Shown in pieces: positions 1,085-27,572 of a stretch of DNA of 64,000 bases; positions within the stretch are counted from its first letter, which is position 1; every line of letters starts with the position of its first letter. The DNA is from Clostridia bacterium (GTDB lineage: Bacteria > Bacillota > Clostridia > UMGS1883). Position numbers and translations under genes: made by a program. Location of the stretch: contig JAZLFH010000017.1 in NCBI GenBank assembly GCA_045615705.1, forward strand, positions 9,121 through 73,120, given 5' to 3'. The notes beneath the pieces were generated by a model. That model searched no databases, was not told where the DNA came from, and saw only the letters and a list, made by a program, of their open reading frames with translations.

Positions 1085-1933
1085 TCACCCTATATCCTTT
1101 GTCATAACTATTGCATTTTCGTTATTGTCGGAATAATATTTTTTTCTTACTCCGCATGTTGAAAATCCAAGTTTGTCGTACAACATTTTTGCACAAGTGT
1201 TACTTTCTCTCACATCAAGAAAAATCTTTTTTGCATTTAACTCTCTTGCACTGTTTTCAACAGCGTTCATTATGCGAGTTCCGATACCGCATCTTCTGTA
1301 ATCTTCAAGGACGGAAACCGTCATTATATGTATTTCGTCAAAAATCATCTTAAATCCGCCATATCCTATAACTTTTCCTAAATGTTCCGCAGAAAAGTAA
1401 TAAGAATCCGGATTTTTAAGTTCTTCTTTAAGCATCGTTTCATTCCAAGTAACTGCTTTTGTTTTTCTTTCAACATCAATTATTTCTTCAATATCTTGTG
1501 GGATGGTTTTCCGTACACTAATGTGTGTAAGTTTATCAACACACTTTTTTATATTTTCGGCACATTTAAAATATTCATCCAAACCCATTCCGAAAGGGTC
1601 TTGTATATCTTTGTCAAATCCTGTATATTCGCACAGTGTGAATGTTTTTTTTGAAATTGTTTCATCGACAGACAATATAAAATCTTTTTGTCTTTCGGTC
1701 ATTGTAAGAATTAAATCGCTTTCTTCCGTCATTTTATAAGTAAGTTGCTTTGAACGGTGCTTTCTTATATCTATTCCGAATTTTTCCATGGTAATTATTG
1801 CGTTTTCCGAGGCTAATGACGGTTCATACACGGAAAGTCCGGCAGAAATCGCTCCATTTAACTTATTATTATAAAACGCTTCTGCCATAGGACTTCTGCA
1901 AGTGTTTCCCGTGCAAATAAAAAGAACTTTCAA
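1085..1933 (-). CDS. Fusion protein: N-terminal YwlE-like low-molecular-weight phosphatase plus C-terminal RimI-type GNAT acetyltransferase
   Basis: N-terminal P-loop VLFICTGNTCRSPMAEAF (CX5R-S) and DPFG acid loop. The C-terminal half has the GNAT acetyl-CoA motif RRCGIGTRIM and a RimI-like length. It overlaps the tsaC stop by 4 nt and ends 4 nt before tsaD. Confidence 0.8.
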   Translation of the reverse strand: MKVLFICTGNTCRSPMAEAFYNNKLNGAISAGLSVYEPSLASENAIITMEKFGIDIRKHRSKQLTYKMTEESDLILTMTERQKDFILSVDETISKKTFTLCEYTGFDKDIQDPFGMGLDEYFKCAENIKKCVDKLTHISVRKTIPQDIEEIIDVERKTKAVTWNETMLKEELKNPDSYYFSAEHLGKVIGYGGFKMIFDEIHIMTVSVLEDYRRCGIGTRIMNAVENSARELNAKKIFLDVRESNTCAKMLYDKLGFSTCGVRKKYYSDNNENAIVMTKDIG

Positions 1934-21573: not shown

Positions 21574-23235
21574 ATGGACTTTCTTAATATGACACTCGGC
21601 GACCTTTTGGACGATTGTGCAATTAAGCATCCGGATACCGAAGCAATAGTCTATCCAAAGACCGGTCTGAGACTTACATACAAAGAATTTAACGAAGTTT
21701 GTCGCCGCACCGCCAAAGGCTTTCTCAAAATGGGTATTAAAAAGGGTGACCATATTGCTATATGGGCTACCAACTACCCCGAGTGGCTTATAACAATGTT
21801 TGCCTCGGCAAAAATCGGTGCAACACTTGTTACGGTTAATACCAATTATAAAATTTTTGAACTTGAATATTTGATGAAACAGTCCGACTCCTCCACTCTG
21901 ATTTTAATGGAAGGCGTCAAAAGTTCAAATTATATGGATATATTGTATGACCTTTGTCCTGAACTTTACGATTCAAAAAAAGGTGAACTATCTTCTAAAA
22001 AACTTCCATTTTTAAAGAGAGTAATTTATCTTGACGAAAAAGAATATCCCGGAGTTTATAACTGGAAGGAAATCGAACTTTTTGGTAAAGATGTTTCGGA
22101 TGAAGAACTTGACAAAATACAAAAAAGCATTGATGTTCACGATGTTGTAAATATGCAGTATACTTCGGGAACAACAGGTTTTCCCAAAGGTGTTATGCTT
22201 ACACATTACAATATAGTAAACAACGGACTTAATATCGGTAACGGACTTCAATTCACGGAAAAGGACAGACTGTTGGTTTGTGTTCCGCTTTTTCATTGTT
22301 TCGGAGCGGTTTTGGCAACTATTGCAAGCGTAACACACTGTACAACCATTGTATTGATTGATGTTTACTCGCCGACTCGTGTTATGCAGGCGATTCAAGA
22401 TGAGAATTGCACTGCTCTGCACGGTGTCCCTACAATGTTTATATTTATGCTTGACCATCCGGATTTTCATAAGTATAAAATGCCTTACCTTCATAAAGGA
22501 ATTATGGCAGGTTCGCCTTGCCCGATAGAAAGAATGCGTCAAGCAATCGACCTTATGGGAATGAAAGATATTGTCATTGTTTACGGTCAAACAGAGGCTT
22601 CCCCGGGTTGCACAATGACAACTATTGACGACACAATAGAAAGAAAGGTCAATACTGTCGGTAAAGTTTTTCCCGGTACCGAGGCAAAAATCGTTGACCC
22701 GGAAACAGGTGAAACTCTCGGTCCGAATCAAACCGGAGAATTTTGTTCGAGAGGCTACCATATTATGAAAGGGTATTACAAAATGCCCGAAGCAACTGCT
22801 TTGGCAATAGATAAAGACGGGTGGCTTCATACAGGTGATTTGGCAACTGTTGATGAAGACGGATATTACAAAATAACAGGTCGTTTAAAAGATATGATTA
22901 TCCGTGGCGGAGAGAATATCTATCCTCGGGAAATCGAAGAACTTTTGTATACTAACCCGTCTGTCCAAGATGTTCAGATTGTCGGTGTGCCGAGTTTGAA
23001 GCACGGCGAAGAGGTTGCGGCGTTTGTCATACCTAATCCGGGAGAGACTTTGACGGAAGAAGATGTAAAAGAATTTGTAAGCGAACGCATGGCAAGGCAC
23101 AAAGTACCGAGTTATGTAGCAATCGTAGATTCTTTCCCGATGACTGCAAGCGGTAAAATTCAAAAATTCAAATTAAAAGACATGGCAATTGAGATGTTTA
23201 ATCTGTCCGATGCCGCCAACATAGAAACAGCATAA
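21574..23235 (+). CDS. AMP-binding acyl-CoA synthetase / fatty-acid-CoA ligase
   Basis: AMP-binding motif YTSGTTGFPKGV, plus TGD and GRLKDMIIRGGENIYP motifs. 553 aa. Confidence 0.85.
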   Translation: MDFLNMTLGDLLDDCAIKHPDTEAIVYPKTGLRLTYKEFNEVCRRTAKGFLKMGIKKGDHIAIWATNYPEWLITMFASAKIGATLVTVNTNYKIFELEYLMKQSDSSTLILMEGVKSSNYMDILYDLCPELYDSKKGELSSKKLPFLKRVIYLDEKEYPGVYNWKEIELFGKDVSDEELDKIQKSIDVHDVVNMQYTSGTTGFPKGVMLTHYNIVNNGLNIGNGLQFTEKDRLLVCVPLFHCFGAVLATIASVTHCTTIVLIDVYSPTRVMQAIQDENCTALHGVPTMFIFMLDHPDFHKYKMPYLHKGIMAGSPCPIERMRQAIDLMGMKDIVIVYGQTEASPGCTMTTIDDTIERKVNTVGKVFPGTEAKIVDPETGETLGPNQTGEFCSRGYHIMKGYYKMPEATALAIDKDGWLHTGDLATVDEDGYYKITGRLKDMIIRGGENIYPREIEELLYTNPSVQDVQIVGVPSLKHGEEVAAFVIPNPGETLTEEDVKEFVSERMARHKVPSYVAIVDSFPMTASGKIQKFKLKDMAIEMFNLSDAANIETA

Positions 23236-23263
23236 AAAAGCACCCGATGGGTGCTTTTTTATG
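23231..23263. terminator. Bidirectional Rho-independent terminator
   Basis: CATAAAAAAGCACCC gat GGGTGCTTTTTTATG between convergent genes. Confidence 0.75.
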
Positions 23264-23283
23264 CTGTTTTTTAATATAATTGT

Positions 23284-24093
23284 TTATGATTTCATTACTG
23301 CTCCGATTGCTCCCGCAAAAGCAGCATTTTTCGGAATGATAAATTTGTTATCACAGAGTTTTTTGATAGAGTTTAGTATCTCATCAAACCTTATATAGTT
23401 AGTAAGAGAACCCAGTACAACAATGTTTTTGGTATTTTTCTGTCGTGCGGTAAAAACAGCCGACATGGAAACCGATTGAATTACCAAATTAAAAATTCCG
23501 AGTGCCATATCTTCTTTACTTGCATCTTCTTTAAGCCCGCCAAAGAACGAAACCGATGTATCGGGCCATAAATTTGAAACCGTGCCGTCTATAACATCCT
23601 TTATTAAAAGGTCAACATTTTCAATTCTGCCTTTTTGAGAAAGCATGCTGATTTGAGAAAAACTCTGTGCATCTAATAAAGCTTTTCCAAGTCCCATTAC
23701 GGTTCCTCCACCCAAAGAAAGCCCTCCGAGATGTAAAAACTTATCGTCTTTTGCGTAAATATAAGCCGTTCCCGTCCCAAGGCTTAACACTATTGCCTCG
23801 GATAGGTTTGACAAATATAATGCACCTCTGCCCACTGCTTCAAATTCACTAACCTTTACGGTTTCTGTATCGAGCAAATTTCCGTTTATATTTAGCGAAT
23901 TAATACCCGTGAGAAAAACTTTTTTAAGTTTTTCTTTTTTTATTGAATTCTTCACAAGCATACTTTCTATATGTTGCTCTAACTTTTCTTTTGAATTAGT
24001 TGCATCTATACACAAAAAGTCAATGAAGTTGGCATCTTCTTTAAGTACGAGTTTTGTTGACGACGAGCCCATATCAACACCGACAAAACACAC
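23284..24093 (-). CDS. coaW: Type II pantothenate kinase (CoaW-like, ASKHA fold)
   Basis: VGVDMGSSSTKLV, LGTGTA, GGLSLGGGTVMGLGKALL and a C-terminal AFAGAIGA match the pattern of staphylococcal/bacillary type II PanK as I recall it. Confidence 0.7.
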   Translation of the reverse strand: MCFVGVDMGSSSTKLVLKEDANFIDFLCIDATNSKEKLEQHIESMLVKNSIKKEKLKKVFLTGINSLNINGNLLDTETVKVSEFEAVGRGALYLSNLSEAIVLSLGTGTAYIYAKDDKFLHLGGLSLGGGTVMGLGKALLDAQSFSQISMLSQKGRIENVDLLIKDVIDGTVSNLWPDTSVSFFGGLKEDASKEDMALGIFNLVIQSVSMSAVFTARQKNTKNIVVLGSLTNYIRFDEILNSIKKLCDNKFIIPKNAAFAGAIGAVMKS

Positions 24094-24662
24094 TACACCC
24101 TCGCCGCCTTTTTAACTGTTTTATAAAGAATAGGAACTAAAACTATTGCTCCTATAAGTTCGATTACTCCGTTTATTCCTATAAGTGTTGTAATTATTGT
24201 TTTAAAAAGGTCATAAACCGCCTTGTAGCTTTCAAACATTCCTCCGAATATGTAGTAAGAGCCAAGTACCAAAACGGTATTTGAAAGTGTGCCTATGCAC
24301 GCAGTAATTCCCGCTTTTAACACATCACTTATGCTTGTCCTCGAAAGAGCCTTAAAAATTGCTCCTGCAATTATTCCGACCAGTATTCGGGGAAGAACAG
24401 AAATAAGAGGATTTGTAAAGGCTATCCAAAGAGGATTTGTAAAGGCTCGAATCATGCATGTTACTCCCCACACCAAACCCAATACTCCTCCGTTTTTAAC
24501 TCCCAGAATAGTTGCACCCAAAATTACAACTATATGAATTGTTGTAATCTCAATTAAGCCGTAGTTAATATAACCGAAATACGGTACAACAGTAAACACA
24601 ACAATAACTGCGGAAAGTATTGCAAGCAGTACAAGCCTTGCAGTGTTAGTGTTTTTTGTCAT
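24093..24662 (-). CDS. ECF-transporter S component, possibly pantothenate-specific (PanT-like)
   Basis: About 190-aa six-TM protein of ECF S-component type. Start placed at 24662 after GGAGGG. Substrate is inferred only from adjacency to coaW. Confidence 0.6.
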   Translation of the reverse strand: MTKNTNTARLVLLAILSAVIVVFTVVPYFGYINYGLIEITTIHIVVILGATILGVKNGGVLGLVWGVTCMIRAFTNPLWIAFTNPLISVLPRILVGIIAGAIFKALSRTSISDVLKAGITACIGTLSNTVLVLGSYYIFGGMFESYKAVYDLFKTIITTLIGINGVIELIGAIVLVPILYKTVKKAARV

Positions 24663-24686
24663 TTGAAAACCCTCCATATTTTTAAT

Positions 24687-25664
24687 TTATACCATAAAGA
24701 ATTTAAGCATAACTGTTAAATATACCCCATACATCAAAAGCATCGTTACTCCTTGCCATCTCTTTAATTTTGAAGAAATAAGCATAGGAACTATCGCAAT
24801 TAATGTTATCACAAGACAAGACGGTGTGTCAAGATAAATGCCTTGTTTTGATATTGGAAGCGGTTTTTTGTTAATAAGACCGCAGAGAGGCAAAATAAGG
24901 GTAGTATCTATGATATTTGCACCTATTATGTTTCCTACACCGAGTGAAGACTGTTTTTTTGTGATAGAAGTTATGGTTGTTACAAGTTCCGGGAGTGATG
25001 TTCCTATTGCAATTACCGTAACACCTATTATTGCCTCCGGAATTCCGAGTTTCAAAGCCAAAAATTGTCCCTTATCGACTAATATATTAGCACCCCAAAC
25101 AATTCCTACCGTTCCGAAAATAAACTTTATTACATTTGACCATATTTCTTTTTTATCCGGAGTTTCTCTCTCCGATTTGATTGCATTTTTCTTTGCCGAT
25201 GCTACATTTTCATAGATAAAAATTGCAAAAATCAGTAATAAAATGATGCTTCCGATTAGCGGAAGAGAACCAGTTTCTAATATTTTATCATAAGAGAAAA
25301 ACGAAAACAAAAAAAGTGTTCCTATGGCACTCAGCATCAATATACCTTTTGCCGAATAATTCTTTCTCTCGATAACAAACGGAAGGCATACCGCAGAAAT
25401 AGCCATAATAATTCCCGTGTTTGCCGTAACCGAACCTATTGCATTGCCAAACGCCATATCCGGAAGTCCCTGAAACGCTGCCAAAAGCGATACAATGATT
25501 TCCGGAAGTGTTGTAGCAAGGCTTACAACTGTCGCCCCGACTATGACCTTTGGTATACCCGACACCTCCGCCATCCATGCCGAAGCATCAACAAACCAAT
25601 CTCCGCCTTTTACTATAAATACTATTCCTACCGCAAAAATAAGTATTGCCAAAAATATCTCCAT
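24687..25664 (-). CDS. Ca2+/Na+ (cation/Ca2+) antiporter, CaCA/YrbG family
   Basis: Two alpha-repeat regions (GATVVSLATTLPE and IAIGTSLPELVT). Start placed at the second ATG (25664), 5 nt after GGAGG. Confidence 0.85.
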   Translation of the reverse strand: MEIFLAILIFAVGIVFIVKGGDWFVDASAWMAEVSGIPKVIVGATVVSLATTLPEIIVSLLAAFQGLPDMAFGNAIGSVTANTGIIMAISAVCLPFVIERKNYSAKGILMLSAIGTLFLFSFFSYDKILETGSLPLIGSIILLLIFAIFIYENVASAKKNAIKSERETPDKKEIWSNVIKFIFGTVGIVWGANILVDKGQFLALKLGIPEAIIGVTVIAIGTSLPELVTTITSITKKQSSLGVGNIIGANIIDTTLILPLCGLINKKPLPISKQGIYLDTPSCLVITLIAIVPMLISSKLKRWQGVTMLLMYGVYLTVMLKFFMV

Positions 25665-25834
25665 AACTTCCTCCATAATACAAAAGACTCATGGGTAGTT
25701 AACTATCCATGAGTCTCATTTTTAATGATACACCATGCCGATACAGGCAGGTATGTTGGCATATCAACCACCTAAGTGGCAATTACTCCCCCACAATTTT
25801 CTATGATTTTATCACAGAAATTATTACTTTGCAA
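25665..25834 (-). promoter_or_regulatory. Promoter plus about 135-nt structured leader ending in a strong intrinsic terminator immediately upstream of the CaCA RBS (candidate riboswitch/attenuator)
   Basis: On the minus strand, TTGCAA-17-TAAAAT (25834-25806) overlaps the pck stop. The leader begins AAAUUGUGGGGGAGUAAUU, followed by hairpins GCCAC-UUAG-GUGGU and UGAUAUGCC...GGUGUAUCA. A 14-bp terminator stem follows (25716-25685) with UUUU, then GGAGGA and AUG. Confidence 0.45.
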
Positions 25835-27572
25835 GGCGATTTTTAAGATTTTCAAGTTGGTTTCTGATTTCAGCAGGAAGACGGTCAAATTTCTTGAAGA
25901 ATTCTTCGATTCCTTCGGTTTCATTAAGCCAAACATTCTTGTCTACGCTGAGAAGTTCTTCAAGTGTTTCCTTAGATACATCAAGTCCTTCAATATTGAT
26001 GTCTTCCGGATTCGGAAGATAACCGATTGCTGTTTCTTTTGCACCGACTTTGCCTTCGCAACGGTCAATAATCCAGTTAAGAACTCTAAGATTATCGCCA
26101 TATCCGGGCCACATAAACTTGCCGTTTTCGTCAAGTCTGAACCAGTTAACATGGAAAATCTTCGGAGCGTTCGGAATTTTTTCGCCCATTTCAAGCCAAT
26201 GTGCGAAATAATCGCCCATATTGTATCCGCAGAACGGAATCATTGCCATAGGATCTCTTCTTACAACGCCAACCGCACCTGATGCTGCGGCAGTTGTTTC
26301 ACTTGCCATTGTAGCACCGACAAATACGCCGTGCTTCCAATCAAATGACTGATATACAAGCGGAGCCGTCTTTGCACGGCGACCGCCGAATATAATTGCA
26401 CTGATCGGAACGCCATTAGGATTTTCAAATTCACTGCTTATGCAGGGGCAACGCTTTGCGGGAGCGGTGAAACGGCTGTTAGGATGAGCACCCTTTTCGC
26501 CGCAATCCTTTGTCCAAGGATTGCCTTTCCAATCAATACCCTTTTCTGGAACTTCGCCGTCAAGGCCTTCCCACCATACAGTATTATCTTCACGAAGCAA
26601 CACATTTGTAAATATTGTATCCGCCTGTGTTGTAGCCAAAGCATTCGGGTTTGTCTTTGAACTTGTTCCGGGAGCAACGCCAAAAAATCCTGCTTCCGGG
26701 TTTATTGCCCAAAGGCGACCATCTTCGCCTATTCTGAGCCATGCAATATCATCGCCGACTGTCCAGACCTTATAACCTTTGAGTATCTCCGGCGGAATAA
26801 GCATTGCAAGGTTTGTCTTACCGCAAGCACTCGGGAATGCTGCTGCAACATACTTGATTTCACCCTTAGGATTTTGGAGACCGAGTATAAGCATATGCTC
26901 TGCCATCCATCCTTCTTTATGTCCGAGGAAACTTGCAATTCTGAGTGCAAAGCACTTTTTACCCAAAAGAACATTTCCGCCGTATGCAGAGTTTACACTG
27001 CAAATAGAGTTTTCTTCCGGGAACTGAACAATGTAGCGGTTTTCTTCGTCAATATCCTTACTTGCGTGAAGACCTTTAACGAAATCGCCGTCCTCTCCTA
27101 ACTCGTCAATCGCAATTTGTCCTGCACGAGTCATAATTGACATATTTTTAACAACATAGATGCTGTCTGTAAGTTCAATGCCGACTTTTGCAAACGGAGA
27201 CGAAGCAGGTCCCATAATGTAAGGAATAACATACATTGTTCTTCCCTTCATGCTGCCTTCGTAAAGTTTATCAAGTTTTGCGTGCATTTCCTTAGGGTCC
27301 ATCCAGTTATTTGTAGGGCCTGCATCTTCTTTCTTTGTTGTACAAATAAATGTACGACCTTCAACACGAGCAACATCATTAGGCTTCGTGCGGTGAAGAT
27401 AACATCCCGGTAATTTTTCTTCATTTAATTTGATGAATTCACCGGTTGATACTGCCTGAGCGGAAAGCTCGTCAAGTTGTTTCTTGCTTCCATCAATCCA
27501 TACCACTTTATCAGGTTGGGTTAAGGAAACCATTTCATTAATCCAATTTAATGCTTTTTTATTATTTGTCAT
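25824..27572 (-). CDS. pck: Phosphoenolpyruvate carboxykinase (GTP)
   Basis: 582 aa. The kinase-1a type motif FPSACGKTN and overall PEPCK-GTP pattern ([16 protein letters not shown]). Confidence 0.95.

Follow-up and report, generated by a model that had tools for sequence, protein, structure and literature searches.

The mgtA riboswitch of S. pneumoniae folds as a three-way junction in which helix P4 is replaced by an invariant UNAAA (Martin et al., 2019, PMC6649816), and the 3′ strand of its L1 loop carries an invariant AGA (PMC6649816). In vitro, the affinity of this P4-less aptamer is higher for Ca2+ than for Mn2+, and either ion compacts the RNA. Read-through in vitro is activated by Mn2+ at approximately 0.2 mM, far better than by Ca2+, and Mn2+ is the sole inducer in vivo (PMC6649816). 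The L3 consensus of the yybP-ykoY family is ACAUACU, which includes the metal-coordinating C and A (PMC12153347), and the exporter families known to be linked to these riboswitches include CaCA, P-type ATPase and MntP (PMC6649816; PMC8546581). In B. pertussis, a yybP-ykoY riboswitch controls the CaCA-superfamily protein BP3410 (BprK), a Mn exporter whose production is induced by Mn (PMC8546581).

In this study, we describe a leader that precedes a CaCA-family antiporter gene in a 64-kb stretch of DNA, hereafter the window. The leader is a genuine member of the yybP-ykoY (Mn2+) riboswitches in a shortened three-helix form, and we consider it very probable that it acts as a Mn2+-responsive transcriptional ON riboswitch of this family built on a P4-less three-way junction. 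Like the mgtA riboswitch, it has no P4 and carries UUAAA in place of UNAAA; it also shares the conserved L1 5′ strand, the AGA of the L1 3′ strand, the C and A of L3, a C-G pair that closes P3.1 and is a possible A-minor receptor, and an intrinsic terminator that competes with P1.1, and it is likewise predicted to be an ON switch for a metal exporter. It differs from mgtA in that a CaCA secondary antiporter rather than a P-type ATPase is encoded downstream, the host belongs to the uncultured gut Clostridia, and P1.1 is richer in G.U pairs.

The BP3410 leader is similar in placing a yybP-ykoY riboswitch before a CaCA gene, although that RNA is approximately 200 nt long, matches the Rfam model with an E value of 8.5e-15, so that standard Rfam searching detects it, and belongs to a proteobacterial host. 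The aptamers of Lactococcus lactis yoaB, Xanthomonas oryzae and E. coli mntP have the same L1/L3 metal-site sequences, P1.1 switch helix and two-leg architecture (PMC6754395, PMC12153347). These aptamers contain P4 and form a four-way junction, whereas the present leader has three helical arms only; in addition, E. coli mntP is a translational switch, whereas this leader is transcriptional. The E. coli alx riboswitch belongs to the family as well and likewise folds as a three-way junction (PMC12153347), which indicates that one peripheral helix is dispensable. However, alx lacks P2 and keeps P4, whereas our leader keeps P2 and lacks P4, and the L3 sequence of alx is UCAUUAC, whereas that of our leader is the mntP-like ACAUAC. 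Both the P4-less form and the pairing of this riboswitch class with a CaCA gene have already been published, and the locus implies no new mechanism.

Materials and Methods

Helices were assigned from an alignment of the leader with six sub-threshold relatives. The covariance model R1 was built from seven sequences, including this leader. Because R1 included the leader, a second model, R2, was built without it, from 18 leaders of CaCA orthologues found in other genomes only. The CaCA set consisted of the 80 closest orthologues of the antiporter (45-55% identity), which came from gut and rumen Oscillospiraceae, Acutalibacteraceae and other Clostridia MAGs. The gathering cut-off of RF00080 is 45 bits (Rfam 15 model). 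Default Rfam scanning covered the whole window, and permissive scanning covered positions 25600-25900 (301 nt). Fold stabilities are given as nearest-neighbour energies.

Results

The leader, of 90 nt (25795-25708, minus strand), lies between a promoter and a terminator (Table 1). The promoter matches the consensus at 9 of 12 positions, carries the TG extension and overlaps the stop codon of the PEPCK gene (25826-25824). Transcription is predicted to start near 25799 on the minus strand, and in relatives a promoter precedes the homologous leader by the same distance. The PEPCK gene (25824-27572; Pfam PEPCK_GTP) ends in a double stop, TAA TAA, and 160 nt separate it from the next gene; from 25824 up to the leader, it has no terminator of its own.

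The gene behind the leader encodes a protein with two Pfam Na_Ca_ex matches, which scores 198.7 bits against the NCBIfam calcium/sodium antiporter model TIGR00367 (cut-off 179.65). Its likely start, with a GGAGGA-6 nt spacing, is the AUG listed in Table 1, located 18 nt past the terminator. The ORF finder placed the start at an AUG at 25676, which lies inside the Shine-Dalgarno (SD) region (AUGGAGGA); because this AUG has no SD of its own, 25664 was taken as the start. With 1.36 Mb, the genome is small and reduced, and its assembled fraction is 82%. This antiporter gene is the sole CaCA gene of the assembly, no MntP or TerC was found in the assembled 82% of the genome, and the leader is the only R1 match in that same fraction. 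Within this 82%, the gene behind the leader is thus the one candidate Mn exporter that can be recognised. The sequencing runs that hold parts of the sequence are DNA metagenomes only (faeces, gut, horse), and none contains more than 0.17 of the sampled words.

Table 1. Coordinates of the leader, its signals and the genes behind it within the window.
Feature	Position	Strand	Remarks
Sigma-70-type promoter	25834-25806	minus	−35 TTGCAA (25834-25829), 17-nt spacer, TG-extended −10 TGaTAAAAT (25814-25806)
P1.1, UGUGGG/CUCAUG	25795-25790 with 25713-25708	minus	Three Watson-Crick and three G.U pairs; switch helix
L1 5′ strand, GGAGUA, within GGGGAGUA	25789-25784	minus	Metal-site/A-minor loop; aligned to the GGGGAGUAG block of RF00080
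P1.2, AUU/AAU	25783-25781 with 25720-25718	minus	Helix 2
P2 hairpin, GCCAC-UUAG-GUGGU	25780-25767	minus	Helix 3; covarying in 3 of 5 pairs
P3 arm	25766-25726	minus	P3.1, L3 and P3.2
P3.1, UGAUAUGCC/GGUGUAUCA	25766-25758 with 25734-25726	minus	9 bp with internal loop
L3 bulge, AACAUAC	25757-25751	minus	Inside the internal loop of the P3.1 stem
P3.2 hairpin, UGCC-UGUAUC-GGCA	25749-25736	minus	
Junction linker, UUAAA	25725-25721	minus	Replaces helix P4
L1 3′ strand, GAGA	25717-25714	minus	Between the P1.2 3′ strand AAU (25720-25718) and the P1.1 3′ strand
Intrinsic terminator	25717-25682	minus	5′ arm 25717-25703, loop UUAA, 3′ arm 25698-25684, U tract
CaCA-family antiporter gene with SD	24687-25674	minus	SD GGAGGA 25674-25669, AUG 25664, 325 aa
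Promoter-like site, TTGACA-18-TAACAT with TG	24832-24803	minus	Inside the 3′ end of the CaCA gene
ECF-transporter S component gene	24093-24677	minus	9 nt after the CaCA gene
Type II pantothenate kinase-like gene	23284-24093	minus	1-nt overlap with the ECF-S gene
Bidirectional terminator	23226-23268		Downstream of the PanK-like gene

The leader fold is better than that of all 200 dinucleotide shuffles (200/200; z = −3.2). It consists of two legs, P1.1-L1-P1.2(-P2) and P3.2-L3-P3.1, in which five helices are all present and supported by covariation, and P4 is absent. The conserved L1 5′ strand of yybP-ykoY, GGGGAGUAG, is present as GGGGAGUAA (25791-25783), and the change of its final G to A is offset by a change of the partner base in P1.2, which gives an A-U pair. 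Compensatory changes were found in 5 of the 6 pairs of P1.1 (helix 1) and in all 12 pairs of helices 4 and 5, which make up the P3 arm. In P1.2, pairing is 100% and all three pairs show compensatory changes; the relatives have GCA/UGC, GUU/GAC (L017) and other combinations. In the alignment to RF00080, the P3 arm matched the CAACAUAC block and its stem at high posterior. The segment AACAUAC(C) (25757-25750) has 6 of the 7 positions of the L3 consensus, with ACAUACC here for ACAUACU, and C25758-G25734 closes P3.1 beside L3 as the putative receptor of a cross-helix A-minor contact.

Much of this anatomy had been anticipated in the earlier note on this DNA. The promoter over the pck stop and the two hairpins that it described are present as stated, and the hairpins correspond to P2 and P3.1. 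Its comparison of the 5′ segment with the conserved yybP-ykoY block agrees with the alignment of GGAGUA to RF00080 and with the invariance of this motif among homologues (see below), and the 3′ GAGAC, which it had taken for a family-like strand, contains the GAGA of L1. Two of its readings need to be corrected. The bases GUUGAUAU that it assigned to L3 belong to the P3.1 5′ strand, and the true L3 is AACAUAC. The region had also been judged too short to hold both P2 and P3/L3; both are present, and the missing helix is P4.

Homologues of the leader are common in the order. R1 gave approximately 60 matches in 44 of 87 genomes, and nearly all of these are 90-100 nt long, that is, P4-less. R2, which did not contain the leader, returned a single match in the window, at 25705-25799 on the minus strand (59.3 bits, E 1.2e-13). 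As a negative control, R1 was run on the surroundings of the PEPCK genes in 80 related genomes (498 kb) and gave no match; the element travels with the transporter and not with PEPCK. Conservation and covariation in relatives, a kind of check that the earlier note had suggested, are clear. Among 32 aligned homologues, 93.0% of the cells form standard pairs, compared with 69.6% in column shuffles and 32-43% with slid partners; both sides have changed in 23 of the 26 pairs, and none of 500 shuffles reached the observed values. In a set of 50 homologues, GGAGUA of the L1 5′ strand and NAGA of the L1 3′ strand are invariant (50/50 each), the closing pair of P3.1 is C-G in 44, the linker reads U[UG]AA[AU] in 47 and the strict U[UG]AAA in 38, and a P4 hairpin occurs in only one (L016).

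The genes behind the best 30 homologues of the order encode CaCA proteins in 18 cases (this one included), P-type ATPases in 7 and MntP in 5. Together with TerC and UPF0016, these are the metal-exporter families expected behind a yybP-ykoY riboswitch. From the side of the transporter, the P4-less aptamer lies upstream of 18 of the 80 CaCA orthologues, and a P2-less, P4-containing form occupies the same place in 9 more, so that approximately 27 of the 80 have a leader of the yybP-ykoY type. Therefore, the orthologous CaCA gene is served by P4-less or P2-less aptamers in different lineages. The P2-less forms (L043, L053, L063, L072, L078, L082, L094, L097 and L117) are found approximately 150-200 nt upstream of the CaCA start; they have no P2 after GGGAGUAG and carry a P4 hairpin before the (A/C)GAGAC strand, which is an alx-like topology.

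Several features of the homologous loci were observed in addition. In the CaCA leaders of genus g6 (L025, L027, L028, L030, L032-L036 and L038; aptamer near 1501-1599), L3 reads GUCA(G/A)UAC. At the first L3 position, U takes the place of the usual A, and the motif resembles the alx-like UCAUUAC, which has been described as exclusive to Enterobacterales (PMC12153347), yet it stands on a P4-less scaffold. Tandem units, in which one CaCA paralogue follows another and both have a riboswitch and a terminator of their own, are present in L036 (1501-1596 and 2658-2753) and L030 (248-342 and 1501-1597; in opposite orientation numbering, 2756-2850 and 1501-1597, minus strand), as well as in G082:C36, G064:C15 and G078:C13. 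In the mntP leaders of sister genera (L010, L011 and L014), a second GC-rich, terminator-like hairpin with a U tract lies before the SD, approximately 40-75 nt past the first terminator.

The default Rfam scan of the window gave no match. In the permissive scan of 25600-25900, the best riboswitch match was RF00080 (Manganese), with 19.8 bits (E 0.0011), which falls below the cut-off of 45 bits; positions 1-85 of the model aligned at high posterior and covered GGGGAGUA, the short P2 hairpin and the P3 stem with its CAACAUAC bulge. The pan motif and the Na+/DUF1646 and nhaA-I Li+ models, which the earlier note had named along with RF00080, had no match at E <= 10 in the same interval. Weak matches to the trpB motif, KRAS 3′UTR, microRNA precursors and rli51 fit the terminator hairpin, are far below their cut-offs and were rejected. 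Of 14 control genomes only 2, and of 61 related genomes none, had a match to RF00080 above the cut-off; in the related genomes, sub-threshold matches of 11-28 bits included obvious mntP leaders, and a search of the 18 orthologous CaCA leaders with this model found none. The failed score therefore reflects the low sensitivity of the model for three-helix forms and not non-membership. Only the Rfam cut-off was failed, and the leader agrees with the mgtA-type P4-less subclass in every test of sequence and structure.

The terminator stem has 15 positions with one A.C mismatch (25717-25684) and is followed by UUUU, and thus a strong terminator does stand before the GGAGGA-AUG of the antiporter, as had been noted earlier. 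Its 5′ arm takes in the 3′ strands of L1 and, over its full length, of P1.1. Because the arm is built from these strands, the closed aptamer and the terminator are mutually exclusive, which supports the competition between P1 and the terminator that was suggested from the first inspection; the same overlap with the P1.1 3′ strand exists in the homologous leaders examined. The terminator fold has an energy of −38.2 kcal/mol, compared with −20.3 kcal/mol for the aptamer fold. Since the terminator fold is the more stable of the two, termination would be the default, and a ligand would have to keep P1.1 shut during transcription.

The terminator of the riboswitch also has the appearance of a terminator on the plus strand (25685-25716). 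Read in this direction, the stem of 14 bp is continuous, since the A.C mismatch becomes G.T, and CATTTTTAAT comes after it. The hairpin at 25685-25716 has no converging gene on the plus strand. The plus-strand appearance is probably incidental, since the A-rich junction linker UUAAAAAU accounts, as its complement, for the T run.

Downstream of the antiporter gene lie the genes of an ECF-transporter S component, for which no NCBIfam model matched, and of a type II pantothenate kinase-like protein, which remains below its NCBIfam cut-off (209.5 vs. 234). The tight spacing of the three genes makes co-transcription likely, and the promoter-like site inside the CaCA gene could drive the ECF-S and PanK genes independently. 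The combination of a cation exchanger with pantothenate genes, which the earlier note had found odd, is real in that the genes adjoin here, but it is not conserved: neither ECF-S nor PanK nor PEPCK was found within 3 kb of the CaCA gene in any of the 80 orthologue loci. A type II PanK is present in only 2 of 31 related genomes, and the other PanK-bearing related genome has no ECF-S gene beside PanK within its 3.8-kb locus. A conserved CaCA-ECF-S-PanK regulon was therefore rejected. Because ECF-S and PanK are absent from the 80 loci and PanK is rare, the juxtaposition is lineage-specific, which suggests that the ECF-S/PanK pair was recently inserted behind a riboswitch-controlled gene. A functional connection of Mn2+ with CoA synthesis does not seem warranted to us, and we consider it quite unlikely that read-through deliberately couples metal stress to the uptake and phosphorylation of pantothenate and hence to CoA supply.

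Discussion

Our model infers what the ligand is, in which direction the leader switches, where transcription starts and what the transporter carries. RNA polymerase would start near 25799 and would probably be joined by read-through from PEPCK entering the leader. P2 and the P3 arm would form in the nascent RNA. At high Mn2+, L1 (GGGGAGUA/GAGA) and the bulged L3 (AACAUAC) would hold the ion between them, and its binding would dock both legs and keep the weak P1.1 (UGUGGG/CUCAUG) closed. A closed P1.1 would sequester the GAGACUCAUG segment, so that no terminator could form and RNA polymerase would enter the CaCA gene, the product of which, by published precedent, probably exports Mn2+; read-through would probably carry on into the ECF-S and PanK genes. 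At low Mn2+, the far more stable terminator would form, and transcription would end at approximately 25682. The assignment of Mn2+ as the probable physiological signal rests on precedent.

The earlier note had left a choice among a minimised variant, a different ligand class and a coincidence. The conserved, covarying fold supports the first, and the other two are not favoured. A different signal would be compatible with the same fold and the same antitermination if the leader responded to Ca2+, or to Ca2+ and Mn2+ together, and induced a true Ca2+/Na+ antiporter. The characterised P4-less aptamer of mgtA does have the higher affinity for Ca2+ and is compacted by Ca2+ and Mn2+ alike (PMC6649816), the protein encoded here passes the NCBIfam calcium/sodium antiporter model and is the only CaCA of the assembly, and in this order the P4-less form mostly precedes CaCA or Ca-ATPase-like pumps (25 of 30 loci). 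However, P4-less aptamers with the same L1 and L3 also precede mntP genes in sister genera, and the L3 of the present leader is the canonical ACAUAC. The mgtA aptamer itself supports read-through far better with Mn2+ in vitro and has Mn2+ as its sole inducer in vivo, and BP3410, a CaCA protein under the same riboswitch class, has been shown to export Mn (PMC8546581). We therefore regard a Ca2+ signal at this locus as unlikely. The wider proposal, that the P4-less subclass in gut Clostridia is a physiological Ca2+ sensor or an integrating Ca2+/Mn2+ sensor, seems to us quite unlikely; if Ca2+ sensing were true, the sole Ca2+/Na+ exchanger of the cell would be under the control of a naturally occurring calcium riboswitch.

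The remaining explanations deny that the leader is a working switch. It could be a decayed or locked descendant of a Mn2+ riboswitch, in which the main role of the hairpin is to terminate PEPCK transcripts, with the CaCA operon expressed only by leak or from another promoter. The G.U pairs that make up three of the six pairs of P1.1, the advantage of 18 kcal/mol of the terminator over the aptamer fold, the lack of a terminator for PEPCK alone ahead of the leader, and the small, reduced genome would all be in keeping with decay. Yet in the kinetically controlled ON switches of this family the terminator is normally favoured by a wide energy margin, all family-defining positions and every helix are intact, the changes relative to the orthologues are compensated (e.g., AUU/AAU in P1.2), and a dedicated promoter is retained at a conserved distance; decay is thus very unlikely. 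The resemblance could also be due to chance, with the hairpin serving as the PEPCK terminator and GGGGAGUA and AACAUAC being coincidental, and we assign hardly any probability to this. Although the Rfam score is below the cut-off and the hairpin is terminator-like on the plus strand too, the independent model R2 recognised the leader as its sole match in 64 kb (59.3 bits, E 1e-13), the element accompanies PEPCK in 0 of 80 related genomes yet precedes CaCA orthologues, and the covariation is strong. The covariation, the homologues among CaCA leaders, the PEPCK control and the R2 match effectively refute an origin by chance. A Mn2+-responsive ON riboswitch consequently remains our preferred explanation of the leader.

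Conclusions

The three-helix form of the yybP-ykoY riboswitch is missed by RF00080 at its cut-off, and the Mn2+ regulons of gut Clostridia are under-called as a result. Moreover, the label "calcium/sodium antiporter" on riboswitch-linked CaCA genes is probably misleading, and Mn2+ export is the likelier function of their products.
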